From Escherichia phage CMS-2020a: a stretch of 64,000 bases of DNA. Of the stretch, positions 38,822-57,220 are shown one piece after another (the first letter of the stretch is position 1; every line of letters starts with the position of its first letter). The stretch lies in sequence record CP053388.1. One strand, given 5' to 3'. The notes under the pieces were generated by a model. It saw nothing but the letters and a program-made list of their open reading frames with translations, ran no database searches and was not told the origin of the DNA. A program made the translations under genes and the position numbers.

Positions 38822-38842
38822 AACAAATTGTTTTCTTGTTGG
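38822..38842. promoter_or_regulatory. motif A
   Basis: aacaaattgttttcttgttgg about 20 nt upstream of ATG. Confidence 0.55.
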
Positions 38843-38882
38843 TGTTAATTATCGTTGTACGAATAAGGCGTCAAAGTGGAAA

Positions 38883-38955
38883 GTTGCGGTAGCCGGACGG
38901 GAACAGGTGGGTTTGTCGGTTGCCTGGAGGTAAGAGGTTGGTGTTTTTAGCCTGC
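38883..38955. repeat. ~75-bp GT-rich repeat, copy 1
   Basis: About 75% identical to 42055-42130 (cggtagcc..aggtgggt..tcggt.gcctg..aagaggttggt). Confidence 0.6.
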
Positions 38956-39002
38956 GGGAAACAAGATGGTCATTTAAGGCCACCAATGCTGATGGCCTTA
39001 AT

Positions 39003-39148
39003 AATTATCGCACGATTACGCTAAGGATCTTTTCCTCAACTGATTTGTTGTTGCGACTAAACTGCCTTGCGTATCTGATGACAGAAGAGGCGTTTTGCTT
39101 TCTGACCATCTCGGCTCTTTCCTTCAGGCGTTTCTTGAAATCGCCCAT
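39003..39148 (-). CDS. hypothetical small basic protein (not in ORF track)
   Basis: 47-aa ORF MGDFKKRLKERAEMVRKQNASSVIRYARQFSRNNKSVEEKILSVIVR. Confidence 0.25.
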
Positions 39149-39150
39149 AT

Positions 39151-39525
39151 TTACCACCAGGCGCAGAAGGTCAGTCTGTTATTGTGAAAGTCGTGGTTCT
39201 TAATCAGATCTTCCACAAGCTCTTTCAACTGCCCCACATCATGCCAGTAACCTTCATCGTACTCCTGACTGCCGAAGAAAAAACCTTCCCGGGTAGGCAA
39301 GTACTCTTCGCAATTACTTTCGTTTATGTGCATCAAATGAGCCTTCAGAAAACAAATGTCATTCATCGTTAATTCTAAAAGCTCACAATTTTCGACTTCA
39401 CCTACGTTGCGCTCCATCCACCCAACGAGCGCATTGAACTTACGGAAGTAAGCAACCTGCTTTCTGGATGCCTCGTTATTCAGATCGTTTTTAGGCTGTG
39501 TCTCGATATAGATATCAAGTCCCAT
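39151..39525 (-). CDS. hypothetical protein
   Basis: Start MGLDIY with AAGGAA RBS. Confidence 0.5.
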   Translation of the reverse strand: MGLDIYIETQPKNDLNNEASRKQVAYFRKFNALVGWMERNVGEVENCELLELTMNDICFLKAHLMHINESNCEEYLPTREGFFFGSQEYDEGYWHDVGQLKELVEDLIKNHDFHNNRLTFCAWW

Positions 39526-39582
39526 GATGGTTTCCTTATTAAGTTGCTTCAGTGAAATCATTTTCACAAATCAGATAAGGCA

Positions 39583-39600
39583 GAAAACAAATTGTTATCG
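39583..39600. promoter_or_regulatory. motif A
   Basis: gaaaacaaattgttatcg. Confidence 0.5.
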
Positions 39601-39634
39601 GGCTTAATAAAATGGCGCGGTTTACGCGCCATTT
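39601..39634 (-). terminator. rho-independent terminator
   Basis: GC hairpin ggcgcg..cgcgcc with flanking T-run on minus strand. Confidence 0.6.
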
Positions 39635-39642
39635 AAAGAGGA

Positions 39643-40038
39643 TTAAGCGAATACGCTTTCAGGGATTAAGGTGTCGGCAGGAATGCCAGAGGTAATGCGC
39701 AGGCCGTACTGACCAATCCAGGTAGTGTTGGTATTCAGGTTGGAGGCGAATACGGTGTTAACCATATTCATCATGGTTTCAAACACCTCTTCATCAACCT
39801 GGCGGAAGTAGTTCTCGATTTTCAGCAGCAGCGGGTCAGTTGCATCGAGAATGGACTGGTATTGAGTCGCGTACTCGCCGTCGGAGGCATCACCTTTACG
39901 CACGATCGTACTGGCCTGGACTTCGGCACCAGTTTCGGTGTTGTACGTAACAACGGTGATTTTTGCCACATTCTTACCTTCGGCGGTTTCAGAGGCATAG
40001 TAAACATCAACTGTCAGTTTTTCGCGTTTAACGGTCAT
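39643..40038 (-). CDS. hypothetical protein
   Basis: Start MTVKREK with GGAGAG RBS. Confidence 0.5.
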   Translation of the reverse strand: MTVKREKLTVDVYYASETAEGKNVAKITVVTYNTETGAEVQASTIVRKGDASDGEYATQYQSILDATDPLLLKIENYFRQVDEEVFETMMNMVNTVFASNLNTNTTWIGQYGLRITSGIPADTLIPESVFA

Positions 40039-40074
40039 TTCACTCTCCGTAGTGTTTTGGTTATTTTTATATTC

Positions 40075-40102
40075 TATGATAGTAAGTATGTACTTACAAT
40101 AC
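40075..40102. promoter_or_regulatory. motif B palindrome
   Basis: tatgatagtaagtatgtacttacaatac between terminator and RBS. Confidence 0.5.
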
Positions 40103-40131
40103 AAAAAAGCCCCGTAAGGATGGCGGGGCTG
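40101..40131 (-). terminator. rho-independent terminator
   Basis: agccccg..cggggct hairpin followed by TTTTTT on minus strand. Confidence 0.7.
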
Positions 40132-40164
40132 TCGTACTGTCGACTAATTGCCACTTGCACATTA

Positions 40165-40476
40165 TCAGGCTATTGCCATCACTGATGCTCTCTGAATCTC
40201 TTGCTGGGCCACGCGGTTAACTTCCATCAAAGCCAGTTCGAGCTGATGTTCCGGCCACATTCTTTGAAATGCCACCCAGCCTTTTCCACGCTGGCGACGA
40301 ACATTCATTACATAACGAGTAAAGGTGTTTTTATCGAAAGACACCGCTGTTTCACGGAACAGACGAATAGAGGTTCCATTGGCAACGATGTCCAGCAAAG
40401 TTAATTGAGCAACCAGCGCAGGCTTCTCTTTTCTCTTCTGGTCTTTGTCCAGACCAAGAACCAATGATTTTTTCAT
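40165..40476 (-). CDS. hypothetical protein
   Basis: Start MKKSLVLG with GGAG RBS. Confidence 0.5.
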   Translation of the reverse strand: MKKSLVLGLDKDQKRKEKPALVAQLTLLDIVANGTSIRLFRETAVSFDKNTFTRYVMNVRRQRGKGWVAFQRMWPEHQLELALMEVNRVAQQEIQRASVMAIA

Positions 40477-40486
40477 TACAACTCCG

Positions 40487-40509
40487 TAAACAACTTGTTT
40501 TCTCAATGG
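40487..40509. promoter_or_regulatory. motif A
   Basis: taaacaacttgttttctcaatgg. Confidence 0.55.
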
Positions 40510-40629
40510 CGTAAATAATACCAGTAAGAAAACGGCTACAAAGCATATTGATCAGGTGCATGAGCGATATGCAGGTTCTTCCCTGCGGCTATAGAGAAAT
40601 TAAGCCAGCATTGCTGGCTTTGGTTGGGG

Positions 40630-40959
40630 TTACTCGAATACTTCAAGAAACTCCTGAACGTCCCAATGCTGGACGAGGTGAAGATAGACCTTAGAAATCA
40701 CGTCATTTTCGCTATCGCATGTGAAGTAGTACTTCTGGCTGCGGTTGTATGTGTCCACACAAAATTCGCTCATATCCATAAAGTCAGCATCTTCACCCAG
40801 GTCGCTGATCATCAAAGCAGGTGCGTCATCACGAGTCATCAGTTCCAGCACCCATCTTGAATTGATCAGAGTGGAAGACCAACCTTCTAACTCATAAAAC
40901 TGATCAAACTCTTTTTGAGTTAATTTCTTGATTTGGTTGATGTCGATATTTGTAAACAT
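40630..40959 (-). CDS. hypothetical protein
   Basis: Start MFTNIDIN with AAGGA RBS. Confidence 0.5.
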   Translation of the reverse strand: MFTNIDINQIKKLTQKEFDQFYELEGWSSTLINSRWVLELMTRDDAPALMISDLGEDADFMDMSEFCVDTYNRSQKYYFTCDSENDVISKVYLHLVQHWDVQEFLEVFE

Positions 40960-40971
40960 AAAGCAATCCTT

Positions 40972-40993
40972 AAACATGTTGTTTTCTTGATGG
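40972..40993. promoter_or_regulatory. motif A
   Basis: aaacatgttgttttcttgatgg. Confidence 0.55.
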
Positions 40994-41317
40994 TGTTATT
41001 ATCGCAATAACACACAGGCGGAAAAGGATTTTATTCCGGTGAATGTGGTTTTGGCAGTGAGTTTTCAGGTTCAGTACCGAGTACACTTTTTACATTATTC
41101 TGATTTAGTGGCCGAAAGTGGCTGGTGGCAGAGTAATCCTCTCCCCAAAAACCTACTGAAATCGATTGTGCCCCGTTGGCTGTCTGGCACAATTACGCTG
41201 TAGCTGGGCATTCAGAGGGAATCCAGCGGTAAGCAAGTCCGCCTACGTGAGCGCCTCTCTTCTTCCCGCACATTACAGGTGGGTAGCCGCAACTCTCCCT
41301 CTCGCTATACCGGTACG

Positions 41318-41475
41318 CCACCGTTCCTGAACCGGCATCGAGCCTTCTCCCGAAATCCACACAGGCAACTCGACCGTTTCTCTGAAAACCTCCAGCCGTT
41401 CCCCGAAGGCAACCCAGCCGTTTCTGTAGCGGGATGCAGCCTTTTCCCTGTATGGACCGAAGGCTGACCGTAGGG
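41318..41475. repeat. iteron-like array (6-7 degenerate ~22-bp direct repeats)
   Basis: Units cagccgtt(c/t)c..gaa at 41318, 41340, 41371, 41394, 41415, 41437. Confidence 0.6.
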
Positions 41476-42054
41476 GTGTTACGGGGGGATAAAATCAGGA
41501 GTTGAATAAATACGAAAAAGGAGGCGACACCTCTCCTTCCCTCCCCACTTATACATACCTGGCTTCTTCGCTATACATGTTGTGTTTTCTTCGTGTTTTA
41601 TCTGTCTCAACCTCTCTATAGGCGTTAATGCTCACTCCTTCCAGAACGTTCTATACGGCGACTATTTCTGTTGGTGAATTGGGTGTGTTGTTTTCTCTGT
41701 CGGTGTATGTGGTTTCGTTCGTTTTGCGGTGGTTCTTCTAGGGGGTGTTCTCGTCGTTTTGGTGATTGTTCTTCTCCATGTATGGAGTAATGGCAGGTGG
41801 GCGATTCCTTTCGTTGTTGTGTTTGAGTTGTTTGTCTGGAGTGCGTGAAGGGCTTTTGTAGTTATTCGTGTATTGGGTAATGGCGTTTCCCGTGATTGTT
41901 ATGTTTCGTGTCTTTTGGGATTGAGAGAATCCTTGTGGTTACAGGCTTCGTTGGGGTTTCAGTGATTCTGGTGTTTCTTCGCTGTTTGGGTAATGGCCTG
42001 TCGTGGGTATCGCGCGTATGAATGTTTTCGGATTGCCTGTGAAAGTTAGGTTGG

Positions 42055-42130
42055 TTGTCCGGTAGCCTGGGGAGAAGAGGTGGGTCTTTTCGGTAGCCTG
42101 CCATAAAGAGGTTGGTTGTTTTTGGGAATG
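42055..42130. repeat. ~75-bp GT-rich repeat, copy 2
   Basis: Paralogous to 38883-38955. Confidence 0.6.
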
Positions 42131-42512
42131 GCATGTGTGTTATTTAGTTGTTTTGTTATACCTGAAAATGAGTTGTTTATATGGTTGTGTAACGCAACGG
42201 GAGCGATTTTGAGCGTGTGTTTTTGTTGGTAGTGTGTTGGGTCGTCTGTGGTGAAAATTGGACGCTGTGGCGCTGTCTGCTGCGTAGAGTTACGGGTATA
42301 AGAAGTGATGTGTGAAAACGTCAATTTTTTAGACCAAATCGGGTGAAAGCGTTGACGTTTCGTTGATCTGTTATTTAGTTGTTTTCTTATTTGTATAAAC
42401 AACCATAACCTATTGATATTTAAAGATATGATTGCAGCTATGGAAGGGGAGTAGTGGCGATCAACGGATTCTTATAGAAAAGAATCAAATTGTGACCGCC
42501 ATTATCAATGTT

Positions 42513-43247
42513 TTACATAGTTTTGTTTAGCAGAGAGAGAATTTCATCACTAATTTCACTCGCCTGTTTTATAGCCAATGCAGTTACCTCTTCTATGGTT
42601 GGTGACTGTTGATGCTCATGTTTGGTTTCAGTTATGACAATGTGTTCTTCACCTGAATTTGCGCATAGTGCCGCATTGACGATAAGGTTTGAGTAAGAAT
42701 TTAGCAGAGCACTGTTGATAAACGCTTTCACGGTATTACTGTCTGCACCAAATACATCTTTTCTGACCGCTTCAGCCTCACAGCGAACCCCTGCAGCAAC
42801 ATCGTGAAGAACATGTATGGCCTTGGGGCTTGTTTGTTCACAGTACTCAATCATTATTGTCGAATTGTTCTGTTCAACAAACGATCTGATGCCTGACGAT
42901 TCACCCATAGCATCGAAGGCAGCGTGACCCGCACTGGTAGAGATATCTTCATAGAGTTCTTCATCGCTATCTTTTTCTTCAGGTGTCGAGGTGTCTTCAT
43001 CGTCGTAATAGATATTGCCTTTAATCAGTGTTTTGGACACTTGATATAAACAATAAGAAACGAGATTTAAGCATTGGATTTTAGCTGTATTGTCCTTTGT
43101 CGCCTCGCTCTTCAGTTCTTTCGCTTCTTCAGTAAGGCTGTTGATAAGACTTTGTATTTTTTCCAACGCGTTAGGCGCACACTCCGCGTTGTCCATAAAG
43201 AATTTATAACCAGTCCCAGGGATTTCTAAACTTTTCAACTTTTTCAT
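42513..43247 (-). CDS. hypothetical protein
   Basis: 244-aa acidic ORF. Confidence 0.5.
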   Translation of the reverse strand: MKKLKSLEIPGTGYKFFMDNAECAPNALEKIQSLINSLTEEAKELKSEATKDNTAKIQCLNLVSYCLYQVSKTLIKGNIYYDDEDTSTPEEKDSDEELYEDISTSAGHAAFDAMGESSGIRSFVEQNNSTIMIEYCEQTSPKAIHVLHDVAAGVRCEAEAVRKDVFGADSNTVKAFINSALLNSYSNLIVNAALCANSGEEHIVITETKHEHQQSPTIEEVTALAIKQASEISDEILSLLNKTM

Positions 43248-43292
43248 TTCTTTGATAATCCTAAAAACAAACTACCAATGCTTTAATATCTG

Positions 43293-43592
43293 TTACCAGT
43301 TCCAGCACTCAAGCCCTTCAACGACTGGTGCTCCACAATCAAAATGTACAGAGTCAAAGCCTACATCAAGTACTTTCTGAATGTTAGCAATCGCGCCTTC
43401 GGATATACCATATCGACGCAAGTCGTCTTTCCAGACATCATCCTGTAACCCGGCGTGAACAATACAACCGCCATCAATTTGTGAAACCCAATCCAGCTCA
43501 TTGCTTGCGATCATGAATCGGCGAGCATCTTCCTCTGATGTATGAGATGAACTGATCAATGCCACCTGGTAGGCTTGGGTAATGTTCAACAT
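43293..43592 (-). CDS. hypothetical protein
   Basis: 99 aa; GGAG RBS; two motif A copies upstream. Confidence 0.5.
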   Translation of the reverse strand: MLNITQAYQVALISSSHTSEEDARRFMIASNELDWVSQIDGGCIVHAGLQDDVWKDDLRRYGISEGAIANIQKVLDVGFDSVHFDCGAPVVEGLECWNW

Positions 43593-43604
43593 TTCAACTA
43601 CTCC

Positions 43605-43629
43605 AAAACAAGTTGTTTTCTTATGTGGC
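43605..43629. promoter_or_regulatory. motif A
   Basis: aaaacaagttgttttcttatgtggc. Confidence 0.6.
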
Positions 43630-43646
43630 TTATTATCTCAATCAAC

Positions 43647-43675
43647 AAAAGGTAGAAAACAAATTGTTTTAGGGC
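43647..43675. promoter_or_regulatory. motif A variant
   Basis: aaaaggtagaaaacaaattgttttagggc; candidate -10 GATAAT lies between the two copies. Confidence 0.5.
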
Positions 43676-43704
43676 TTGTGTAAATCAGGAGGGATTGTGT
43701 CTAT

Positions 43705-43736
43705 ATGAAAATGCCCGGCGTGTTGCCGGGCATTGT
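43705..43736 (-). terminator. metG terminator hairpin
   Basis: aatgcccggc..gccgggcatt just after the metG stop. Confidence 0.5.
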
Positions 43737-43753
43737 GAAAAATGGTTGTTTAG

Positions 43754-45787
43754 TTACTTAACTTGGTGGCCTGGTTTAGCACCAGCATCCGGGCTTAACA
43801 GGAAGATATCTTTTCCGCCAGGGCCAGCAGCCATCACCATGCCTTCGGAGATACCGAAGCGCATTTTACGCGGTGCCAGGTTAGCCACCATAATGGTGTG
43901 ACGACCAATCAGTGCCTGTGGATCTGGATAAGCGGAACGAATGCCTGAGAAGACATTACGTTTTTCTCCGCCGAGATCCAGTGTCAGGCGCAGCAGTTTG
44001 TCAGAACCTTCGACAAACTCCGCGTTTTCAATCAGCGCCACACGCAGGTCAACTTTGGCGAAGTCGTCAAAGGTGATGGTTTCCTGAATCGGGGCGTCAG
44101 CCAGTGGGCCAGTTACCGGTGCAGCTGTGGCTTTCACTTCTTCTTTGGATGCTTCCACCAGTGCTTCCACCTGTTTCATATCGATACGGTTATACAGTGC
44201 CTTGAACGGATTCACTTTATGGCCCAGCAGCGGTTGCTGGATACCATCCCAGGTCAGTTCTGTATTCAGGAATGCTTCTGCACGTTCAGTCAGTTTCGGC
44301 AGTACCGGTTTCAGGTACGTCATCAGCACGCGGAACAGGTTAATGCCCATAGAGCAAATCGCCTGCAGATCGGCATCGCGTCCTTCCTGCTTCGCCACCA
44401 CCCACGGAGCCTGTTCATCAACATAGCGGTTAGCCAGGTCAGCCAGTGCCATGATTTCACGGATAGCTTTGCCAAATTCGCGGCTTTCCCATGCTTCGCC
44501 AATCACTTCAGCGGCATCAGTAAAGGTTTTGTACAGTTGCGGGTCAGCCAGTTCGCTTGCCAGCACGCCGTCAAAACGCTTGTTGATAAAGCCTGCATTA
44601 CGGGAGGCCAGGTTAACCACTTTGTTCACGATATCGGCATTCACGCGCTGAACGAAATCTTCCAGGTTGAGATCGATATCATCAATGCGCGAAGAGAGTT
44701 TCGCAGTGTAGTAGTAACGCAGGCTGTCGGCGTCAAAATGATTCAGCCAGGTGCTGGCTTTAATAAAGGTGCCGCGAGACTTGGACATCTTCGCACCGTT
44801 CACCGTCACATAGCCATGAACAAACAGGTTGGTCGGCTTGCGGAAGTTGCTGCCTTCTAGCATGGCAGGCCAGAACAGGCTGTGGAAGTAAACGATATCT
44901 TTGCCGATGAAGTGGTACAGCTCGGCGGTGGAGTCTTTCTTCCAGTATTCGTCGAAGCTGGTAGTGTCGCCGCGTTTGTCGCACAGATTCTTGAAGGAAC
45001 CCATGTAGCCAATCGGCGCGTCCAGCCAGACGTAGAAGTATTTGCCCGGTGCGTTCGGAATTTCAAAACCGAAGTAAGGTGCGTCACGGGAGATATCCCA
45101 CTGTTGCAGGCCAGATTCAAACCACTCCTGCATTTTGTTTGCCACCTGCTCCTGCAACGCACCGCTGCGGGTCCATGCCTGCAACATTTCGCTGAAAGAA
45201 GGCAGATCAAAGAAGAAGTGTTCGGAATCACGCATTACCGGTGTAGCGCCAGAAACTACCGATTTCGGCTCGATCAGTTCCGTCGGGCTGTATGTCGCGC
45301 CGCAGACTTCACAGTTATCGCCGTATTGATCCGGCGCTTTACATTTCGGGCATGTGCCTTTTACAAAACGGTCCGGCAGGAACATGCCTTTTTCCGGGTC
45401 GTACAGCTGAGAGATGGTGCGGTTTTTAATAAAACCGTTCTCTTTCAGGCGAGTGTAGATAAGCTCGGACAACTGACGGTTCTCTTCGCTGTGCGTCGAG
45501 TGATAGTTGTCATAGCTGATGTTAAAGCCTGCGAAATCAGTCTGATGTTCCTGACTCATTTCGCCAATCATCTGCTCCGGTGTGATACCAAGCTGCTGTG
45601 CTTTCAGCATGATCGGCGTACCGTGGGCATCGTCGGCACAGATGAAATTAACCTCGTGGCCGCGCATTCGCTGGTAACGAACCCAGACATCAGCCTGGAT
45701 GTGCTCCAGCATATGGCCGAGGTGGATTGAGCCGTTAGCGTACGGCAGCGCGCACGTCACCAGAATTTTCTTCGCGACTTGGGTCAT
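43754..45787 (-). CDS. metG: methionyl-tRNA synthetase
   Basis: Start [25 protein letters not shown] (HIGH motif), KMSKS motif, C-terminal tRNA-binding domain; matches enterobacterial MetG as recalled from memory. Confidence 0.97.
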
Positions 45788-45944
45788 AGTAGGCATTACT
45801 TCTTTGTAGTGAAAAGGGGCTTGATAGTAACAAAATGGCCTTATGTCTGCCATGTGATAACAGCATTTCTCATAAATGATTAAATGTCGTAGCTGGAGTA
45901 CACTACAAGGCGACAATTGCGCAAATTAAAATAAAGGAGACGGG

Positions 45945-47045
45945 ATGAGCGAGTCCAAATCGCCGGATGCCCTGAGAGCAATGGTAGCCGGTACGCTGGC
46001 TAATTTTCAGCACCCAACCCTGAAACACAACCTGACTACGCTTAAAGCGTTACACCATGTTGCGTTGATGGATGACACACTGCATGTCGAACTAATCATG
46101 CCTTTCGTGTGGAATAAGCCTTTTGAAGACCTGAAAGAGCAATGTAGTGGTGATCTGCTCCGTATCACTGGCGCAAAGGCTATTGACTGGAAGCTGTCGT
46201 ACAACATTGCCACGCTTAAGCGTGTCAAAAACCAACCAGGCATTAATGGCGTTAAGAACATTATCGCCGTCAGCTCAGGCAAGGGCGGCGTGGGTAAATC
46301 CTCCACGGCGGTAAACCTGGCACTGGCGTTGGCTGCTGAAGGTGCGAAAGTTGGTATTTTGGATGCCGATATCTATGGTCCATCAATTCCAACCATGCTG
46401 GGCGCGGAAAACCAACGTCCAACCTCACCTGACGGTACTCACATGGCACCTATCATGTCTCATGGCCTGGCAACCAACTCTATTGGTTATCTGGTCACCG
46501 ACGACAATGCAATGGTGTGGCGTGGACCGATGGCCAGCAAGGCGCTGATGCAGATGTTGCAGGAAACATTGTGGCCTGATCTGGACTATCTTGTTCTCGA
46601 TATGCCGCCGGGCACTGGTGATATTCAGTTGACGCTGGCGCAGAACATTCCTGTAACTGGTGCTGTTGTGGTAACTACGCCGCAAGACATCGCGCTGATC
46701 GATGCGAAGAAAGGCATTGTGATGTTCGAAAAAGTCGAAGTGCCGGTACTGGGTATCGTTGAAAACATGAGTGTGCATATTTGCAGTAACTGCGGTCATC
46801 ACGAGCCAATTTTTGGCACCGGTGGCGCACAGAAACTGGCCGAGAAATACAACACGCAGTTGTTAGGCCAAATGCCACTTCATATCTCTCTTCGTGAAGA
46901 TCTGGATAACGGAACACCAACCGTTATTAGTCGTCCAGATAGCGAATTTACAGCTATTTATCGTGACCTCGCAGATCGCGTTGCCGCCCAAATGTATTGG
47001 CAAGGTGAAGTAATACCTGGCGAAATCGCATTCCGCGCAGTGTGA
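45945..47045 (+). CDS. apbC: Fe-S cluster carrier ATPase ApbC/Mrp
   Basis: P-loop SGKGGVGKSS and CxxC motif; divergent from metG with AAGGAG RBS, the native enterobacterial arrangement. Confidence 0.95.
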   Translation: MSESKSPDALRAMVAGTLANFQHPTLKHNLTTLKALHHVALMDDTLHVELIMPFVWNKPFEDLKEQCSGDLLRITGAKAIDWKLSYNIATLKRVKNQPGINGVKNIIAVSSGKGGVGKSSTAVNLALALAAEGAKVGILDADIYGPSIPTMLGAENQRPTSPDGTHMAPIMSHGLATNSIGYLVTDDNAMVWRGPMASKALMQMLQETLWPDLDYLVLDMPPGTGDIQLTLAQNIPVTGAVVVTTPQDIALIDAKKGIVMFEKVEVPVLGIVENMSVHICSNCGHHEPIFGTGGAQKLAEKYNTQLLGQMPLHISLREDLDNGTPTVISRPDSEFTAIYRDLADRVAAQMYWQGEVIPGEIAFRAV

Positions 47046-47082: not shown

Positions 47083-47472
47083 CTACATCACGGGACAATC
47101 ATCAAACTCGCCACTTCTTGCGTCGTTGATAATGTGAGTGATCACACCAAACACGGCATTGCTGCCCGTGCATCCATCGTCATCCTTTGGCAATGCTTCC
47201 TTCTTACCGGTTCTTAAATCCTCCAGATGCTGACGTGGGTACTTCCGGTATCTTTTTACGCGATATTCCCCATCCAGAGCGCATACAAGCAGAGAACCAT
47301 CAACCGGGGTAAGTGAGGAATCGACCACCAGCAATGCACCCTGTAATATTCCCTCACGATGATGACTATCAGCTGCCCTCATGAAGTAGGTCGCTGAAGG
47401 ATGTCTAATTATCTGCTGATCAAGAGAAATACGGCTCTCAACATAATCCGCCGCAGGAGAAGGGAAGCCCAT
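47083..47472 (-). CDS. UmuD'-like S24 peptidase-family protein (N-terminally pre-truncated, HumD-like)
   Basis: GFPSPAADYVESRISLDQQIIRHPSATYF aligns with UmuD from its autocleavage-site region onward; no umuC. Confidence 0.85.
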   Translation of the reverse strand: MGFPSPAADYVESRISLDQQIIRHPSATYFMRAADSHHREGILQGALLVVDSSLTPVDGSLLVCALDGEYRVKRYRKYPRQHLEDLRTGKKEALPKDDDGCTGSNAVFGVITHIINDARSGEFDDCPVM

Positions 47473-47488: not shown

Positions 47489-47508
47489 TACTGTATACAC
47501 ATACAGTA
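47489..47508. promoter_or_regulatory. LexA (SOS) box overlapping the UmuD'-like promoter
   Basis: tactgtatacacatacagta = CTGT-N8-ACAG; -35 TTCAAA and -10 TATACT on minus strand. Confidence 0.85.
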
Positions 47509-47803
47509 TATATTGAAGCTATATATTTTTGAACTCTATCTCTTAAAAAAGATGTTAATAAGATGCTAACTATTGAAAGGCATAAATATATACAATTCAA
47601 ACAAACGTTATTTTTAACAAATTTTTTCTTCCCATTGACTTTTTCGAACGCCTTGTCCGGTCTAAAGTGCGCAGAAGTCACTTTTTCCTTCCTGAGTTAT
47701 CCACAGGCTTATGCACTTGCATGAAAAATCTATTCACACTATCTTAATTCGCAAGACACTGATGTTGCAGTATTGAGGGTATGTTGGGTTAAAAATAGAC
47801 ATT

Positions 47804-47836
47804 AAAAAGCCCAGTTGACTAGGCTGGGCTTTTTAA
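47804..47836. terminator. bidirectional terminator hairpin
   Basis: aaaaagcccagttgactaggctgggcttttt. Confidence 0.65.
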
Positions 47837-48229
47837 AAGGAAACAGAGTTTGCGGCTCTGTTCCTGAGCCATAAGTATCTGGCGACTGAGCTAAGATTAA
47901 CCGAATGTACTGGATTCATCAAGAAACGTTGAGTGGTCATACTAGGTAATAATGACCATTTACTAAACATCGTTGTTCTCAAAGAAGATTTAAGTCCAGG
48001 TTTTTGGTGACTCTAAAACCTTACCTTAACTCGAAATCGTGCCGTAAGTATCTGGCGACTACAGATATTGCAACTGCAAAGGCAAGCTCAAAGGTATTTG
48101 CAGCTAGGTGCGATAAAACTAAGTGAGGCCTATAGTGCTTAACTTACTTTTCAAAATCGTGCCGCCTATGTTCGCAATCATCGAAGCGATCATTGAGTAC
48201 GTCAACCAGCGCCCATAATGCTAGTTGTT

Positions 48230-48257
48230 ACCGGCCCCATCCAAATGGGGCCATTTT
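48230..48257 (+). terminator. plus-strand rho-independent terminator
   Basis: ggccccatccaaatggggcc followed by atttt. Confidence 0.55.
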
Positions 48258-48267
48258 ATTGTATTGA

Positions 48268-48900
48268 CTACATACTTTCTGATCTAATTGAGTTGTTCAC
48301 TGCTCTGGCAATCTTCTCCCGCAATTGCTGCGCTCCGTGGTACTGAACCGCAATATCCCGCAACTCGTTCACCAGTTCTCTAATCTGGTGATCTTTAAGC
48401 TCATTATTTGGGTGATGGGTAACAACTCTGGTTAATTCACCCTTGTCTTTTGCTCTTACGTATGCAGCTCTTGTGCATTCGACCCATGTATTACCGCCTA
48501 CATTAACTTCGTAGATTAGGCTGGACTTATCTGTCAATTCGGAACAAATACGGGCCGTGGTCTGGCAACTAGAGCATTCGCAGTTATCGCGGAAACCGTG
48601 ATCTACCGGTCGAGAAAGAGGTTTAACTTTTTCATCCAACTTCATCACAGCATCGTGATAAGCGTTCCAGCCGTCATCTTTACCAAGTTGATAAATCTCT
48701 GAAGGCTCCATGTAGTCTATATCGCAACCTTCTTCATCCGATCTATCTGGTCGCTTCCCTGGTAATCGCTCATAAAAACGTTTTCTGTCTCGACGTTCGG
48801 CTCTCAGAGCTAACGCAAGAAGTTGCTCAAGCGAGGTATTTGCACCAGCAATAATTTCATTGAGAATATCTTCTGTGAGATCTTTCGCTACCGTGCTCAT
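48268..48900 (-). CDS. hypothetical protein
   Basis: 210-aa ORF. Confidence 0.5.
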   Translation of the reverse strand: MSTVAKDLTEDILNEIIAGANTSLEQLLALALRAERRDRKRFYERLPGKRPDRSDEEGCDIDYMEPSEIYQLGKDDGWNAYHDAVMKLDEKVKPLSRPVDHGFRDNCECSSCQTTARICSELTDKSSLIYEVNVGGNTWVECTRAAYVRAKDKGELTRVVTHHPNNELKDHQIRELVNELRDIAVQYHGAQQLREKIARAVNNSIRSESM

Positions 48901-50962: not shown

Positions 50963-51360
50963 TTTCTTTCACCTTCAATGTTCGTGGCGCTGGCACGATT
51001 GTCCTTGCGAAGAAGAGCGGCTATGCGCTTACTTCCATCCGAGATAACGCCCTCGTAATACTCACGCTGCTCGTTGAGTTTTGATTTTGCCAACTCCAGT
51101 TGTTTTGTTAGTTCCGCAATACGGCAAACATCGTTGATACGCGTTTCCTCTAATGCGTTGATCTCATCCAGTAGTGCCAGCACGGTTTCTGGTCCGGCCA
51201 GAAATTTGAAGGCGTTGAGGGCATCAATATCAACACCGCTATCTTTAAGTTCCTGTTCGCATATCAGATCATCATCAACTGGCAACATTAACAGGCGTTC
51301 CATTGCCGGAATTGCACGCTCTGCCGCCTCACGCAGTGCCTGATAGTCAATCTTGCTCAC
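50959..51360 (-). CDS. hypothetical coiled-coil protein (Ea22-like?)
   Basis: 133-aa ORF. Confidence 0.4.
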
Positions 51361-51857
51361 TGGATGACTCCTTTACGAAGCTGTTCAGCAATACTTACGC
51401 ATATCTCTGCGCCTCTAATCAGCCCCGGAACGTTCTTGTTTGGCCCAACTTCACCATCAACAAAATCAATCATCGCGTTACGAGCCATATCCACGCCCTG
51501 CGCACGTACTTCAGCCAGAAAAGCATCGGTGGCTGGAGTCTCCGTCAATTCGCTAACCCAATTATCTCCGTGTTCCTCGGCACACATCGCATCGAATGCT
51601 CGCTCAGATTCTTTCAGGGCTGCATTCTCCGCCGCTAATGCGTCTCTTTGCGCCAGCAACTTCTCAATTTCGGCAGCCATGTAGTAACCAACCATAGCGA
51701 AGACGGCAAAAGAGTTATCTGCCTCATCAGGCGACACTGAGGCCATTAGCAGGCCATCGTAAAAATCGTGACTCCCATTGGTGATCGCCACCGCATAGGA
51801 GTCGTGGTTCTCGCGCTTGTGAATGAGAACTACGGGATTTTCGATTTTGTTACTCAT
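51357..51857 (-). CDS. hypothetical protein
   Basis: 166-aa ORF; motif A variant upstream. Confidence 0.5.
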   Translation of the reverse strand: MSNKIENPVVLIHKRENHDSYAVAITNGSHDFYDGLLMASVSPDEADNSFAVFAMVGYYMAAEIEKLLAQRDALAAENAALKESERAFDAMCAEEHGDNWVSELTETPATDAFLAEVRAQGVDMARNAMIDFVDGEVGPNKNVPGLIRGAEICVSIAEQLRKGVIQ

Positions 51858-51920
51858 GTGTTTTTCTCTTCTTTGCTGTTACATAAGCACTACCAAGTGC
51901 TGGTTTATTTTCACAAATAA

Positions 51921-51948
51921 GAAAAGGTAGAAAACAATTTATTTAAGG
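51921..51948. promoter_or_regulatory. motif A variant
   Basis: gaaaaggtagaaaacaatttatttaagg. Confidence 0.45.
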
Positions 51949-51995
51949 CCACAACTTATGGCCTTTATTTATTCATGCCGAAGGATTTGTAGCGT

Positions 51996-52376
51996 CTAAT
52001 TGCCGGATAAAATGGGGTGAGGTGCTTGCCAGTAGGCTCCACCGTTCCATGTGAACCCCATGCGAATAAGAGTGTTTATTGCGGCTTTGGTAGCCTCCGA
52101 TTCGACACTGGCTTTTCGAAACTCTTGAACCTCTTTCGCCAACTTGTATGTAATTGTGCAGGGGACGATTGCAGCCCAGCCTTTCTCATGACTGTTAATG
52201 ACCATCTGGATGTGACCATCCAGAATAGGTTGATTAGGCATGTTATTGAAAATGTCTGCCTGTTTTTGAATGTGAAGAAAAAGCCTTGCCAGCTCCATTT
52301 GCTCACTCCGAGACAAGGGATTATCAAGAGGGCTTTTTGCAAAAGCGGCTACACGCTGTGCGTCAATGCCAAACAT
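51996..52376 (-). CDS. hypothetical protein
   Basis: 126-aa ORF. Confidence 0.45.
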   Translation of the reverse strand: MFGIDAQRVAAFAKSPLDNPLSRSEQMELARLFLHIQKQADIFNNMPNQPILDGHIQMVINSHEKGWAAIVPCTITYKLAKEVQEFRKASVESEATKAAINTLIRMGFTWNGGAYWQAPHPILSGN

Positions 52377-53080
52377 CAGCGCACCTCACCATCTTTATGG
52401 CTGGAGTTAACTTCCGCCATTAAATGTCTGACGTAATCGACAAGAGAGCCACCTGGTGGAATCTGGCATTCCTCGACTAACTGGAAGTAGATATCCGCAG
52501 CATTACGTGTATTGCTACCCGCACATATTCTTTCTTCCCGAAGTGCATGAAGCTCGTTGATCAAACGGTCACACTCTCCGTTACGCTGATCCACAACGGC
52601 CTCAAGCTCTGCGACGCGTTCACCTGGCGTCTTACCTTCTTTGCGTTGGATGGTAACGACGAAATCGCCAATTTCCGGGACGTTGTAATCCAGCTCAAGG
52701 TAGTTTTTGGCACCGCTGCGGACGAACTCACCCGCGAACATGGTAGCGAACATCGCAGAGGCCACTTCGCCGTTGAAAAGTGACTCCAGATCTAACGGAG
52801 TACCGGCAGCAAGAGCCTCTTTTGCTGTATCCATTGCATCCATGAACCGATCAAACTCATTGGCGCGCTTTTCCAGGTTTTTCCATTGCTCGCTCCAACG
52901 TTTGGCAACGAAGTCTATGAATGTTTTCGCGGATTCATCAAAATTCCCCTCAAACTTAACGATGCCTTTATCAATAATGATCTGGCCTACCGCATCCTCT
53001 GCATAACCTTTCAATGTAAACTTGAAAGGAAAATCGGAATGGCCTGTGACGTTAAAATGCTCTAACTGGAGGTTGCTCAT
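52376..53080 (-). CDS. hypothetical protein
   Basis: 234-aa ORF. Confidence 0.5.
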   Translation of the reverse strand: MSNLQLEHFNVTGHSDFPFKFTLKGYAEDAVGQIIIDKGIVKFEGNFDESAKTFIDFVAKRWSEQWKNLEKRANEFDRFMDAMDTAKEALAAGTPLDLESLFNGEVASAMFATMFAGEFVRSGAKNYLELDYNVPEIGDFVVTIQRKEGKTPGERVAELEAVVDQRNGECDRLINELHALREERICAGSNTRNAADIYFQLVEECQIPPGGSLVDYVRHLMAEVNSSHKDGEVR

Positions 53081-53121
53081 GTGTTTTCTCTTATCGTTTA
53101 GTTACTACATTCTTACATAAA

Positions 53122-53142
53122 CTAAGTAAGTATTTACCTATC
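53122..53142. promoter_or_regulatory. motif B palindrome
   Basis: ctaagtaagtatttacctatc at the MTase gene stop. Confidence 0.5.
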
Positions 53143-54826
53143 ATTTAACGCGTTTGAAAACGTATACGCTGACTGTGATCCCTGTGTCTTCAAACTCGTT
53201 GGTAAACGACTTCCCTCTGGCATAAACGTAATTATCCATCGTCATCCAGTCCAGTATTGGCGCAGTGCCCGGCAATACTGCTACAAGACGCCCGCCGACT
53301 TTCAGATGCCCCAGCGCAGCCAGCGTGTGCTCTCTATGACGACCAAGCGAGTACGGCGGGTTCATAACGATTTTGTCGAACTGATAACCTACGTTGTCCT
53401 CAGACCACTTTATGAAGTCGCAGCAAATCGTGTTCGTATACCCTTTTCCGCGCAGGATATCAGCGAAGAGAGGTGCGATTTCTATGCAGGTAACATCTTC
53501 CAGATCGGCGTTGATATAGGCCAGAAGATCCCCACGTCCGGCTTGAGGCTCCAGCAGCTTCTCACCAGACTTCAATTCAGTGGCTCTGGCAACGTACTCA
53601 GCAATCAAGCGTGGGGTAGGGTAGAACTGGTGTGATTTTGTATCCGGTATTAATCCGGTAGCCACAATCGTATTTAGCGTATGGCCGATCTCATACGGGA
53701 ACTGCCAGTGTTTTTTCTCCTGCACGCCGCCAATGAAGCTCAGTGTGCGCTCAAGCTCTTCCACCTGCGACTTCTGGAGAGCTGAATCAGAGAAGTACCA
53801 TACGCCTTTGTCTTTGCTCAATCGCCCGTCACGAAGCGCAGTGCGAACCGGCACGGAGATCGTCTTCTGGATTAACCCGAACTGCTTTGGTGCCCGTGTT
53901 TTTGGCGCAGTTCGGCATGGCGCGGGGATTGCAGCAGGCATACTGTAAGCCAGCACCTCATTCAACTTCCAGGCCACGTCAGGATGTATTTCAAAGTGAA
54001 CGTTGCCGTTCTTGAACATCTTCACGCGCATCAGATTTCCATCGACGTTCATCCAGTCACCGGTCTGGCAGTCGTTTGCTCGATACGCAGCTGATAGCAC
54101 CTCAGCAGTGCGGTTGATGGTAATAAATTCTTTGTGCGCGAAGAAATGAAGCAAGACACGCAGATCGTCGATGTAGTCCTCTTTGCGATAGTTCACGCTA
54201 ACGCTGTCCCGCCAGAAATCAGAAATGCAGTCAGCGATTATCAGACGCTCGCTGAAACCGTTTGTCTTATTTGTCTTGTGCGCAGGACTCAGCGCCTTAA
54301 ACAAGCCATACACGCGCTCAGAGAGATATTTGTGCCTGTCATTCAGCAAATTAAGCATCGTGGGTATGACCGTTTCTGCTTTGAACTCCGGTACACCAAC
54401 GAACTCTTTAACCTTCATCTGGTAGCCGGTTCTGTCAGTTTTGATGACTTCCTGTTTGCCCTCTATAAACTGCTCGCGCCACTCATCTCGACGGGAAGCT
54501 GGCATGATCAGCAAAACGTTAGTCATGTCCGTGACCTTCCTCCAGTACTCGGCCCAAATATTCTGTTTCACCCATTCCAGATCGACTTTATCCAACCAAC
54601 CTCGATTTAAACGCGAGCGATCTTCATCTGGTCGATGGTTTAGTCTCAGCAGGCGATTAATCATGTTGTGGCGTTCGTCGCCATAAACGAAGTCGTGTAC
54701 CTGATACATGAAGGCGATCTCTTTCTCGCACTCGGCCACAATTTCGTGGATGACGTTCATTTCCTGCCGATAGTCGATAGCAGTGTTTGAGTTGGCATCG
54801 TCGATGATGGAAAGGGCTGTATTCAT
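53141..54826 (-). CDS. DNA methyltransferase (NPPY class) with ~380-aa N-terminal domain of unknown function
   Basis: C-terminal FYPTP, EPQAGRGDL (SAM-binding) and IVMNPPY motifs. Confidence 0.7.
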   Translation of the reverse strand: MNTALSIIDDANSNTAIDYRQEMNVIHEIVAECEKEIAFMYQVHDFVYGDERHNMINRLLRLNHRPDEDRSRLNRGWLDKVDLEWVKQNIWAEYWRKVTDMTNVLLIMPASRRDEWREQFIEGKQEVIKTDRTGYQMKVKEFVGVPEFKAETVIPTMLNLLNDRHKYLSERVYGLFKALSPAHKTNKTNGFSERLIIADCISDFWRDSVSVNYRKEDYIDDLRVLLHFFAHKEFITINRTAEVLSAAYRANDCQTGDWMNVDGNLMRVKMFKNGNVHFEIHPDVAWKLNEVLAYSMPAAIPAPCRTAPKTRAPKQFGLIQKTISVPVRTALRDGRLSKDKGVWYFSDSALQKSQVEELERTLSFIGGVQEKKHWQFPYEIGHTLNTIVATGLIPDTKSHQFYPTPRLIAEYVARATELKSGEKLLEPQAGRGDLLAYINADLEDVTCIEIAPLFADILRGKGYTNTICCDFIKWSEDNVGYQFDKIVMNPPYSLGRHREHTLAALGHLKVGGRLVAVLPGTAPILDWMTMDNYVYARGKSFTNEFEDTGITVSVYVFKRVK

Positions 54827-54929
54827 AATTGCACCATTAAGAAGTGATTTGTTTAATGGTGCAATTATTTCAAAAATGAAAAGGTACTAAATAGAAATAA
54901 ACAGGCAATCGTTCAAATAAAGGCATTGG

Positions 54930-55535
54930 CTAATCATACTTGGAGGTATTTATCACCAGAATTTTGTTTGTATAAATCTTCTTAATATCCCATGTGACAT
55001 TACCGGAATACCATTGACCGTTATATACTTGGTTTCCAGTTGCACCTGTCATTGTTACATAGACAGGTCTGTCGTAATCGGTTCGTCTATAGTTATATAC
55101 CCCAACCATAGCAGGCATTACCGCACATGGATACCCCATATCTATTGTAAATTGAGGGTCAGAAATAGTGATAAGTTTCGCATCAAGGGGCATCATCTCA
55201 CCGTGATACACCATTGCGCCTGCGCTGTTATACATGGCAATGCCATAGCCAGAATGTGGTAACACCATATCAGAAAAAGCATAAACTGTTATTGTTCCGG
55301 GGCTACCATTTACCTGATGCAATCTGAGAGCATTGTATCCGTTACTATGCTCATGAATAAACATCATGTTCGCCTTATTACTGCTTTTTATGAAGAAAAA
55401 GCATGATTTGTTTGATGGGATTGATGTTTGAAAAACAGAACCTTTAGATGTAGACATTGTCCCTTTATTAATCAGATTTTGCGGAGTAAATTCTGGACTC
55501 ATCCACAAACTTCCATCTGATTGAGTAATTGACAT
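54930..55535 (-). CDS. hypothetical protein (AT-rich cassette gene 2)
   Basis: Asn/Tyr/Gly-rich; start MSITQSDG. Confidence 0.45.
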   Translation of the reverse strand: MSITQSDGSLWMSPEFTPQNLINKGTMSTSKGSVFQTSIPSNKSCFFFIKSSNKANMMFIHEHSNGYNALRLHQVNGSPGTITVYAFSDMVLPHSGYGIAMYNSAGAMVYHGEMMPLDAKLITISDPQFTIDMGYPCAVMPAMVGVYNYRRTDYDRPVYVTMTGATGNQVYNGQWYSGNVTWDIKKIYTNKILVINTSKYD

Positions 55536-55546
55536 CCCGAACATAA

Positions 55547-55828
55547 TTATCCCCAGTATGTGTATATGTAAGAACCAAGCCCCGTATATAAATTTGACCA
55601 ACTAACCGTATTTCCATTAATAGTAACTGTTGGAACAGGTAAATTAATGTAGTTGTCGTTGTTAAGAGGCATCAATGACCACACGGCATGTAGCGATTTA
55701 CCCGGTGGCGGATTGGAGTACGTCTTAGAGCCTGATGACGCAGTAAATCGATCAAGAAAAAAAATAGGAGTAAGGAAGCCAGTAACGTTAATTCCTTTAT
55801 TGTTGTAAATCCCTGTACCGTATGACAT
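55547..55828 (-). CDS. hypothetical protein (AT-rich cassette gene 1)
   Basis: 93 aa, Asn/Tyr/Gly-rich. Confidence 0.45.
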   Translation of the reverse strand: MSYGTGIYNNKGINVTGFLTPIFFLDRFTASSGSKTYSNPPPGKSLHAVWSLMPLNNDNYINLPVPTVTINGNTVSWSNLYTGLGSYIYTYWG

Positions 55829-55882
55829 TTTTCACCCTTGTTTTTATCAACACAATATGGCCGATCATGCGGCCATATCAGA

Positions 55883-56452
55883 TCAATTAGAGCTTTGAAA
55901 GACTTTGTGTGGTTGTGTTGCGAGGTTATGTCGATGGCTTAACTCACGCATCATGTCTTCAAGCCGACTCTTTGTGTCGTCGAGTTGGTCGGCCATTGCT
56001 CCCAAAAGCTGACGAACGGCCATCGGATCATCGCTGTTTAGTGATGGCATTTTATAACCCGCCTGAGAAGACATAAGATTGAACGCAGACATCAACATCG
56101 TTAGAGAGGATTTAAGCCCAGCAATTTCACGATCTTTGCTGGCAATAATCGCCTCACTCTTGTTAGTGTCATCAGTTCGTTGAGTCTCGCTCACCATATC
56201 CAAAGTCGCCTGCAACTTATCAGCGCGCTCTTTTTCAGCAAGATAATGAACACCGAAATGATGTGCTAAAGCTACAACCTGAGTTGGCTCTTCAAAGGTG
56301 GACTCAAAATTAAGTGCTGTAACCACTCTCTCAAATATGGAAACGTCTTCTATTCCTCGAAGAATGGCTAACATTTTGACCAGTTCATTAGCATCCATTT
56401 CTTCGAATAAGGCGTTTTGTTCATCAGCTATCGCTTTGCATTTCTTGCACAT
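55883..56452 (-). CDS. hypothetical coiled-coil protein
   Basis: 189-aa ORF; motif A upstream. Confidence 0.5.
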   Translation of the reverse strand: MCKKCKAIADEQNALFEEMDANELVKMLAILRGIEDVSIFERVVTALNFESTFEEPTQVVALAHHFGVHYLAEKERADKLQATLDMVSETQRTDDTNKSEAIIASKDREIAGLKSSLTMLMSAFNLMSSQAGYKMPSLNSDDPMAVRQLLGAMADQLDDTKSRLEDMMRELSHRHNLATQPHKVFQSSN

Positions 56453-56468
56453 GTGTTTTTCCTAATGC

Positions 56469-56493
56469 TTAAACAAGTTGTTTTCTTATTGGC
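56469..56493. promoter_or_regulatory. motif A
   Basis: ttaaacaagttgttttcttattggc. Confidence 0.6.
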
Positions 56494-56559
56494 TTTATTG
56501 TGATGTGGCATAAAAGGGGAGCAAGCTAAACGTAAAGGTGCAAACTCTCTATTTCGGTC

Positions 56560-56590
56560 AACGAAACACAAGGGCCATTTGGCCCTTGTC
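56560..56590 (-). terminator. rho-independent terminator
   Basis: aagggccatttggccctt hairpin, T-rich tail on minus strand. Confidence 0.6.
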
Positions 56591-56749
56591 ATTAACACGT
56601 TGCTTTACGGACTAGCGGATAAGCGAAGTAGATCGCCAGACCAATGAGGACGCCATCAGAAATGACAGACATCATCTTTCCCGTAAAATCCACCAACACC
56701 GCCATCACCAGAAGAGCAATGACGATCACAAGCCGGAATCTCTCAAGCA

Positions 56750-57175
56750 TTAGAGATAAGCATCCAGTGACAACTGAAGCGCCTGGGCGATCTTTTTCAG
56801 TGCCTGCTCTTCTTGTTCACCAATGCCGTCCTGATCGGCAATATCAAGGCACAGACACAGAACATCGACCGCCTCTGGAGTACCCGCAATATCAGACAGC
56901 TCACGAATAGCCTGTGCATTAGCAGAACGAGGGGACGCTTCGTAACGAGCACGGATATTGGCGCTCATTTGGGCAATTTCACCAGCAAACGGAGAAAACG
57001 CAGGCAGAGCTGCAATTGTCTTCTCAAGAATGGCAATTTCTTTTGCGTCACATGTGCCGTCGGCATAGGAGATCATGTACGCGCCCCACACGGTGGCCTC
57101 AACCGCATCACGGTTCTCCATTTTTTTGACTTCGATAACAGCTTTACGAGTTTTCTTTTTGAAGAAACCTAACAT
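56750..57175 (-). CDS. TerB-like domain protein
   Basis: Tandem YADG / DIADQDG acidic motifs. Confidence 0.5.
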   Translation of the reverse strand: MLGFFKKKTRKAVIEVKKMENRDAVEATVWGAYMISYADGTCDAKEIAILEKTIAALPAFSPFAGEIAQMSANIRARYEASPRSANAQAIRELSDIAGTPEAVDVLCLCLDIADQDGIGEQEEQALKKIAQALQLSLDAYL

Positions 57176-57197
57176 GTGCTTTCCTTTTATTATTTGT

Positions 57198-57220
57198 CAA
57201 AACAAGTTGTTTTCTAATTA
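57198..57220. promoter_or_regulatory. motif A
   Basis: caaaacaagttgttttctaatta. Confidence 0.6.

Follow-up and report, generated by a model that had tools for sequence, protein, structure and literature searches.

A palindrome in fixed register to extended −10 promoters may serve as a shared operator in an SSU5-type phage-plasmid

The 64,000-nucleotide stretch of Escherichia phage CMS-2020a analyzed here (CP053388.1; "the window") carries a recurrent palindrome of 13–17 bp, AAAACAA-n-TTGTTTT, which we term motif A. We read motif A, with a probability of about 0.6, as the operator of a promoter–operator cassette that is repeated about 16 times and through which an element-encoded symmetric repressor would silence viral genes in the plasmid state. 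This reading builds on the enrichment of the motif, its fixed geometry, its conservation, the absence of RNA-type covariation, the silence of linked genes in the lysogen, and the phylogenetic distribution. The 8-kb segment 38000–46000 of the window shares 97.6% identity with Escherichia phage Cyrano (OV696614), which is pLF82, an SSU5-like phage-plasmid carried by E. coli LF82 (PMC9928086). The minus strand holds nearly all genes around the motif A copies, and sites at these minus-strand genes are described in gene orientation.

At up to two mismatches, AAAACAANTTGTTTTC yields 20 strand-matches in the window, corresponding to 11 loci plus one weak match, against 0.29 expected. None of 100 shuffled controls contained more than three matches, confirming that the motif exceeds background. 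The 13-bp core AAACAANTTGTTT (at most one mismatch) is centered at 29456, 29481, 38827, 39591, 40494, 40978, 43612, 43663, 51938, 56477, and 57206. All 11 loci of the initial annotation, which had claimed at least 11 copies, are thus recovered; nine of its start coordinates are accurate to within 1–3 nt, while two are displaced by about 8–9 nt (43647 becomes 43655–43671, and 51921 becomes 51930–51946). All copies lie upstream of minus-strand genes as proposed, but the distance from dyad center to start codon spans 18–81 nt, which is wider than the suggested 15–60 nt. Seven copies immediately precede the ribosome-binding site (RBS), and the extended plus-strand consensus ending in ...TTGTTTTCttatTGG is correct, representing the reverse complement of the conserved CCAnnAAGAAAACAA that joins the dyad to the −10 element. 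The described pairing around a −10-like hexamer applies to the copies centered at 43663 and 43612, which flank TGAGATAAT, but not to those at 29481 and 29456, which arose by tandem duplication of 25 bp downstream of the −10; in the Klebsiella relative, one copy is present at this place. All motif A copies are intergenic, and the 29-kb structural block is free of them except for the terS leader. Genome-wide, Cyrano contains about 16 promoters with motif A, and its extra copies outside the window precede parA, the gene for a DnaB-type helicase, a cobT-like gene, CYRAN_58, and nrdB.

The motif is embedded in a larger unit, which in gene orientation consists of a GC hairpin with T-run, a dyad, TCTA-CCTTTTc, 4–9 nt, TGnGATAAT, aACACCAnCAAG, a dyad, 10–25 nt, the RBS, and ATG. 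We analyzed the register of −10-like hexamers (A at position 2, T at position 6, at least four of six matches) at 24 sites from the window and SSU5. The hexamer begins precisely 25 or 26 nt before the dyad center at 12 of the 24 sites (class 1; eight with a TG extension) and precisely 26 nt after it at five (class 2; all with TG). A positioned hexamer is therefore found at 17 of 24 sites, 13 of them with TG, which corresponds to the extended −10 class of sigma-70 promoters. If the hexamer is taken as −12 to −7, the dyad center is located at about +14 in class 1 and at about −38 in class 2. Class-2 dyads are directly preceded by terminator-like hairpins, and the promoter of the gene at 43592 combines both dyads at a distance of 51 bp, an arrangement that recurs in the SSU5 orthologue (14975/14924). 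Promoters with a TGn-extended −10 normally dispense with a −35; TTGACG/TTTGTA-like hexamers occur about 15 bp from the −10 in the cassettes. From these sequence features, we infer that the cassettes are extended −10 sigma-70 promoters, with activity and start sites predicted accordingly from the position of the hexamer. Such a strict register relative to the −10 suggests that the dyad is selected for a role in transcriptional control. A phage-specific promoter element, which the initial annotation had offered as an alternative, does not fit this geometry, as the dyad mostly lies downstream of the extended −10 and otherwise covers the −35 region.

The features of the cassettes and of the terS region in the window are as follows (dyads are given without strand):

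43655–43671: putative upstream operator dyad TAAAACAATTTGTTTTC, centered at about −38 of the predicted promoter of the gene at 43592; partner at 43604–43620, 51 bp away
43632–43637, minus strand: extended −10 TGaGATAAT, between the two dyads
43604–43620: putative downstream operator dyad GAAAACAACTTGTTTTG, centered at about +14; ATG 43592 follows 20 nt on
43711–43733, minus strand: GC hairpin with T-run, terminator-like, which would end the preceding transcription unit just ahead of the cassette
38819–38835: class-1 dyad with one mismatch; GATAAT at 38848–38853; ATG 38800 of a 160-aa gene, the CYRAN_111 orthologue
39583–39599: class-2 dyad, after the terminator hairpin 39612–39632; TGtGAAAAT next (hexamer 39560–39565); ATG 39525
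40486–40502: class-1 dyad; TGgTATTAT (hexamer 40515–40520); ATG 40476
40970–40986: class-1 dyad with one mismatch; TGcGATAAT (hexamer 40998–41003); likely true start 40959
51930–51946: class-2 dyad with one mismatch, abutting the hairpin 51945–51965; TGtGAAAAT (hexamer 51907–51912); gene start 51857
56469–56485: class-1 dyad; CACAAT at 56497–56502; ATG 56452
57198–57214: class-1 dyad, perfect, before a TciA-like gene (ATG 57175); weaker −10 TGTAAT
29473–29489: distal dyad of the terS leader, in class-1 register after CCTAATTAAACACCCCAG
29448–29464: proximal dyad of the terS leader, product of the 25-bp duplication
29429–29448, minus strand: conserved hairpin AGAGCGC-N6-GCGCTCT followed by GTGTGTTTT, terminator-like, between the dyads and the terS RBS; terS ATG 29409
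29605–29871, minus strand: winged helix-turn-helix (HTH) gene, 88 aa (CYRAN_123), the binder proposed by the initial annotation; not supported (see below)

The mismatch in the dyad centered at 40978 creates an ATG at 40975–40977 inside the putative operator, which is why callers of open reading frames (ORFs) begin the gene at 40977; the true start is likely the RBS-preceded ATG at 40959. In the class-2 promoter at 51938, another perfect dyad, AGCACTTGGTAGTGCT (51886–51901, minus strand), occupies the place where class-1 promoters have motif A; the SSU5 orthologue of this promoter has kept the left half AGAAAACAAC alone at this position. The GC hairpin with T-run in the terS leader suggests a further, antitermination-type control of late genes. 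Between the winged-HTH gene and the terS promoter lies a 37-bp AT-rich near-perfect palindrome, GTATATATAAATAATAAGTAACTTATTAAATATATAC (29535–29571, minus strand), which is kept in the Klebsiella relative and may be a site for the winged-HTH protein or a packaging or late-promoter element.

The pattern of variation among the copies indicates which type of molecule is read. Each half-site position is invariant in 22–24 of the 24 copies, while the central base is random (C7, A7, G7, T3; n = 24). All ten single-mismatch copies break the symmetry, compensated double variants are absent from the 24 copies, and the best RNA hairpin of the motif reaches −1.8 kcal/mol. Because the variants are uncompensated, the center is random, the hairpin is weak, and class-2 copies lie upstream of the promoter, we regard motif A as a double-stranded DNA site for a symmetric protein. 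The dyad operator for a dimeric regulator envisaged by the initial annotation is consistent with this conserved but non-pairing sequence, the free center base, and the fixed register to the −10. Further, a conserved dyad with a free center that overlaps the core promoter or start, here at +14 and −38, is the arrangement of a repressor operator.

Expression in the lysogen was taken from per-gene RNA-seq counts of LF82/Cyrano with a median of 9.8 (PMC9928086, supplementary file 2). Of 14 first genes linked to the motif, 11 are at background (range 5.7–12.9 versus the median of 9.8), namely terS (7.1), CYRAN_47 (7.8), CYRAN_58 (5.7), CYRAN_70 (12.9), CYRAN_85 (7.0), CYRAN_87 (7.1), CYRAN_93 (6.3), CYRAN_101 (7.5), CYRAN_105 (12.8), CYRAN_106 (12.2), and CYRAN_108 (5.7). 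Promoters of the TGnGATAAT type are expected to fire unaided, and their silence consequently favors repression. Moreover, the +14 position of most dyads argues against activation. The suggestion that motif A controls the early genes and also the terS leader is supported.

Among viral contigs, multi-copy use of motif A is element-specific. In SSU5, 13 copies that agree in consensus and architecture lie within 31 kb; Klebsiella pJN2-26 contains 13 such copies in 41 kb, against 0.15 expected. The motif is unchanged across SSU5-type elements of Escherichia, Salmonella, and Klebsiella, and Yersinia pMT1-type contigs, Kluyvera contigs, and two sister lineages carry it as well. In an exact 17-mer scan of IMG/VR, all multi-copy carriers were SSU5-supergroup contigs, and every other match was single. 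In the Pectobacterium plasmid Drgb1, which is syntenic, the motif is not enriched in any of three loci that cover all 108 kb (8 versus 8.2 expected, 1 versus 0.9, and 5 versus 5.1), and it is missing from the 16 kb around terS in each of two Xenorhabdus elements and a Morganella element. The motif-less relatives share a terS leader in which ...TAAACACTGCGGAAAAAGGA runs directly into the RBS, whereas in the SSU5 clade ...TAAACACCCCAGAAAACAAnTTGTTT is followed by the hairpin. Judging from this difference, the right dyad half seems to have been added to an ancestral leader within the SSU5 clade.

A binder of motif A should accompany the motif in every element, with the parts that read DNA unaltered, and be different or defective where the motif is absent; a lysogenic repressor should also be expressed in the lysogen. 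Judged in this way, the most likely binder, at roughly one chance in three, is CYRAN_29, a putative ParG/omega-like partition adaptor of 119 aa. Its gene lies outside the window as the second gene of the parA operon and overlaps the parA stop codon. The preceding CYRAN_28 (ParA) is a small Walker ATPase of 222 aa, which lacks an N-terminal HTH and matches AAA_31, MipZ, CbiA, and ParA; a small ParA followed by a small adaptor gene is the layout of type-Ib partition systems. CYRAN_29 displays a basic Pro/Arg/Lys tail, followed by a strand-helix-helix pattern (SRTMSLED, EYFELLEMMKF, TRSDVIRAAIFHLAEK). All 12 of 12 family members weakly match the ribbon-helix-helix (RHH) family aCcr1 (best E = 1.6e-4, below cut-off), aCcr1 being an RHH factor (PMC9976878), and one member matches Pfam RHH_1 with E = 0.019. 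The parA operon is expressed in the lysogen (50/89/55), and its promoter carries a perfect dyad in class-1 register in Cyrano and the two sister lineages, which would represent autoregulation only if CYRAN_29 is the binder.

CYRAN_29 is 91–100% identical in all motif-bearing phages including SSU5. In the sister lineages, overall identity of the protein falls to 47–64%, yet three parts do not vary, namely the arm (PQGRPTRGK), the strand (SRTMS-EDE), and helix B (FTRSDVIRAAI); these lineages have motif A at the parA and helicase promoters. In contrast, Drgb1, the only fully scanned relative without motif A, has a CYRAN_29 orthologue of 34% identity and a decayed homologous operator position, with scattered half-sites AAGAAAACAA, TTGTTT, and GTTTTCTT upstream. 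Its parA is annotated as two coding sequences of 90 and 123 aa (6303–6991 of the Drgb1 locus), reflecting either a frameshifted pseudogene or a sequencing error. Tentatively, the partition adaptor might thus double as the master silencer of lytic promoters, the autoregulatory par operator having spread to about 16 phage promoters within the SSU5 clade of enterobacteria; a single protein would then connect plasmid maintenance with the choice between lysis and lysogeny.

In the proposed mechanism, each cassette would comprise an extended −10 sigma-70 promoter (TGnGATAAT or TGnGAAAAT) and one or two dyads, each dyad consisting of two converging 7-bp AAAACAA units with one free base in between. 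A symmetric element-encoded protein would occupy the dyads in the plasmid (lysogenic) state, possibly as two CYRAN_29 dimers on one dyad, analogous to omega on two converging heptads, and would prevent either RNA polymerase binding or promoter escape. A repressor at +14 would block open-complex formation or promoter escape, while at −38 it would occlude the upstream contact region. The 51 bp between paired dyads correspond to about five helical turns, and cooperative binding is therefore possible. As each small unit possesses its own terminator–promoter–operator cassette, one protein could silence all units in parallel; the silenced units would include early and replication-accessory genes and, via terS, the late operon.

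Several points weigh against this picture. A canonical −35/−10 scanner found no TTGACA-like −35 at 16–18 bp from the −10 at the cassettes in 38000–44000, so that the promoter assignment and the predicted start sites rest on the extended −10. ParA (49.8), the helicase (21.1), and CYRAN_111 (25.5) are not fully silent in the lysogen despite good dyads, and the silence of the other genes is equally expected if the promoters need an activator. The model also does not account for the relief of such a repressor upon SOS induction. Regarding the binder, the screen covered part of the unannotated proteins. For CYRAN_29, phmmer against the PDB, a profile search, and hhalign versus ParG, omega, and CopG were all non-significant, and with family matches below the curated cut-offs its RHH fold is putative. 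The putative DNA-reading parts of CYRAN_29 are also conserved in the Drgb1 orthologue, leaving a weak argument from the split parA and the scattered half-sites. Finally, no parH-like repeat array was found near parA, but 1–4 extra half-sites within 150–250 bp, a mild enrichment.

In logic, the closest known system is omega of pSM19035, an RHH ParB whose 7-bp heptads overlap the copS, delta, and omega promoters (PMC9499535). Two converging heptads suffice for high-affinity binding by omega, while at least four contiguous heptads are needed for ParA activation (PMC9499535). The gene order resembles that of the omega and TP228 ParG systems, with a small Walker ParA and, after it, a small protein that combines a basic tail with a strand-helix-helix pattern. 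As for omega, which is a global repressor, the recognition unit has 7 bp, two units converge, and several promoters are overlapped by sites, among them the par operon's own (PMC9499535). By this analogy, the two converging 7-bp units of motif A would form an operator rather than a centromere. Unlike the six omega arrays of 7–10 heptads, however, about 16–18 isolated two-unit dyads are spread over a 108-kb phage genome and target lytic and late phage promoters; the unit is AAAACAA instead of WATCACW, and RHH fold and binding are putative here. In lifestyle, P1 is the closest system, a phage-plasmid that likewise holds down lytic functions via many scattered operators at individual promoters, with 22 dispersed operators of the C1 repressor (PMC8546580). 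The C1 operator is, however, an asymmetric 17-mer, ATTGCTCTAATAAATTT (PMC8546580), while motif A is a perfect dyad of unrelated sequence, and the cassette architecture is far more uniform in the SSU5-type element than in P1. A homologue of C1 did not turn up, although no search was aimed at one.

Motif A thus does not conform to a P1 C1-type immunity regulon, nor does it match the LexA/SOS box (CTGT-N8-ACAG). In the lac O1/O3 type of control, an operator at about +11 acts together with an upstream site by looping, and the IncP regulators KorA/KorB exert global control by reusing a palindrome at many promoters. The cassettes resemble lac in having one site just past the start point and a second, auxiliary one that faces the same side of the helix (51 bp, about 5 turns), and KorA/KorB in reusing a single palindrome; sequence and proteins are unrelated to these systems, and looping is only suggested by the spacing. 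The promoter-early stem-loops (PeSLs) of T4 are reiterated units of terminator hairpin and early promoter between small genes and possible recombination points. They share the hairpin–promoter repetition with the cassettes, but lack a repressor dyad, and T4 is virulent.

Among alternative explanations, the winged-HTH protein CYRAN_123, a candidate of the initial annotation, would be a lytic product of the parB-ABC operon that binds the dyads and, as a temporal switch, shuts off early promoters and/or controls the terS leader. The protein is a winged helix whose gene sits immediately ahead of both terS-leader dyads; helix 3 and the wing do not vary among the window, SSU5, and pJN2-26, and the Drgb1 terS leader contains an everted dyad of the same half-site. 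Yet the recognition helix is equally kept in Drgb1, the two Xenorhabdus elements, and the Morganella element, all without motif A, and these relatives do not share the everted dyad. At +14 of the terS promoter, CYRAN_123 would moreover repress the neighboring late genes, and with its messenger RNA at background (7.8) in the lysogen where motif promoters are silent, it does not qualify as lysogenic repressor; we consider its role as binder unlikely. Late promoters of P1 need the activator Lpa, and the dyad could similarly be an activator or promoter-specificity site, the cassettes being silent in the lysogen for want of a phage activator. The lack of a consensus −35, the class-2 dyads at about −38, which are compatible with class-II activation, and the lysogen silence, which fits equally well, speak for this model. 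However, 12 of the 17 positioned sites lie at about +14 inside the transcribed leader, where activators do not act, and a TGn-extended −10 normally needs no −35, which renders activation distinctly improbable. We rate just as low a host transcription factor of Enterobacteriaceae that would plug the element into a host regulon: the motif does occur in elements of Escherichia, Salmonella, Klebsiella, Kluyvera, and Yersinia and is absent from those of Pectobacterium, Xenorhabdus, and Morganella, but among viral contigs its multi-copy use is restricted to the SSU5 supergroup, no paper on motif A or its consensus was found in the searchable literature, and we know of no E. coli factor with this consensus.

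Dyads that are primarily dispersed centromere sites for ParA/RHH partition, with a secondary effect on transcription, would equally fit the association with the parA operon; the phage-plasmid N15 has dispersed centromere sites. The strict register to the −10 again points to transcriptional control, and an array of at least four contiguous repeats, as expected of a centromere, is missing near parA. As each site contains two heptads whereas omega requires at least four contiguous ones to activate ParA (PMC9499535), this function has little to recommend it. Class-1 copies would be transcribed 10–25 nt ahead of the RBS and might therefore act in RNA, either as a 5′-leader hairpin or as a protein or small-RNA site for translation or stability. 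With a hairpin of at most −1.8 kcal/mol, zero compensatory changes, tolerance of single uncompensated changes, class-2 copies upstream of their own promoter, and no Rfam match in the window, this is the most remote of the readings considered.

Several further proteins were tried as binders and rejected. CYRAN_45, an HTH "putative repressor", has no SSU5 homologue, is just 56% identical in Klebsiella phages, and has a different dyad in its own region. This CYRAN_45/CYRAN_46 divergent region (Cyrano locus 6575–6825, outside the window) contains GGTAAGTGCTTACC and GGTAAG/CTTACC half-sites; GGTAAGTGCTTACC is probably the operator of CYRAN_45, and its 14-mer pattern has one occurrence in the stretch of SSU5 examined and two in that of pJN2-26. 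CYRAN_43, the top-expressed lysogen gene, was found in Cyrano alone. CYRAN_117 (34652–34930) is expressed in the lysogen and RHH-like by eye, but its outward strand residues vary among motif-sharing elements; its single-sequence AF2 model was poor. CYRAN_98 comprises an S24 domain only, has its own LexA box, and is UmuD′/HumD-like rather than a repressor, while CYRAN_99, annotated as "MinD", is an Mrp/ApbC NTPase adjoining metG and not a partition protein. In CYRAN_111 (38318–38800), no DNA-binding signal was found. Pfam, PHROGs, and NCBIfam provided no names for any of the small proteins, and a word-indexed homologue search with the winged-HTH protein returned close relatives only. A subtractive gene comparison with Drgb1 could not decide on the binder, since too many accessory genes differ.

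The window contains further elements of interest. A second recurrent dyad, motif B ((G)GTAAGTnnnnACTTAC), is located at 7086–7099, 20508–20521, 26003–26016, 33026–33039, and 40083–40096, mostly ahead of tail and late operons and in the region where parB and uvsW diverge. The copy at 40083 occupies the −35-to-spacer part of a TTGTAA-17-TAGAAT promoter, and the Pectobacterium relative repeatedly carries a similar element, TGTA(A/T)GTATnTAAATAC. Motif B may be an activator site of late or middle promoters. On the minus strand, 47083–47472 encodes a UmuD′/HumD-like protein of 129 aa with an S24-peptidase domain only, preceded by a perfect LexA box, TACTGTATGTGTATACAGTA (47489–47508), the only good LexA box found. 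This gene has 148 counts in the lysogen and higher expression in macrophages, and is a likely entry point of the SOS signal for the ciprofloxacin-inducible element. The adjacent 47510–48270 (minus strand, about 760 nt) has no ORF of at least 60 aa on either strand and no Rfam match, but two copies of AGTCGCCAGATACTTAYGGC (48041–48060 and 47868–47887) and a terminator-like hairpin; it could encode regulatory RNAs, for instance a P1 c4-like immunity RNA. A FljA-like gene (35348–35950, plus strand; Pfam Flag1_repress, E = 2.5e-84), a phase-1 flagellin repressor with orthologues in Cyrano, SSU5, and pJN2-26, hints that flagellar expression of the host is subject to lysogenic conversion. Finally, metG (methionyl-tRNA synthetase; 43754–45916, minus strand) diverges from an Mrp/ApbC-type NTPase gene (45945–47045, plus strand; "MinD" in Cyrano), which has 92 counts in the lysogen. 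The pair looks like a captured host module, as it matches the chromosomal metG-mrp order.

Phage-plasmids of the SSU5/pHCM2 type are common in clinical Enterobacteriaceae, and 798 PLSDB plasmids carry a marker gene of the SSU5-type family (the winged-HTH gene). No description of lysis–lysogeny control in SSU5-type elements was found in the searchable literature. A defined operator and the list of promoters that bear it provide a direct experimental handle on these elements, and operator titration is a possible route to induce or cure them. If the partition adaptor is the binder, the element would clearly exemplify how a module for plasmid maintenance can be recruited to repress a prophage, which would explain how stable inheritance is coupled to the silencing of viral genes.

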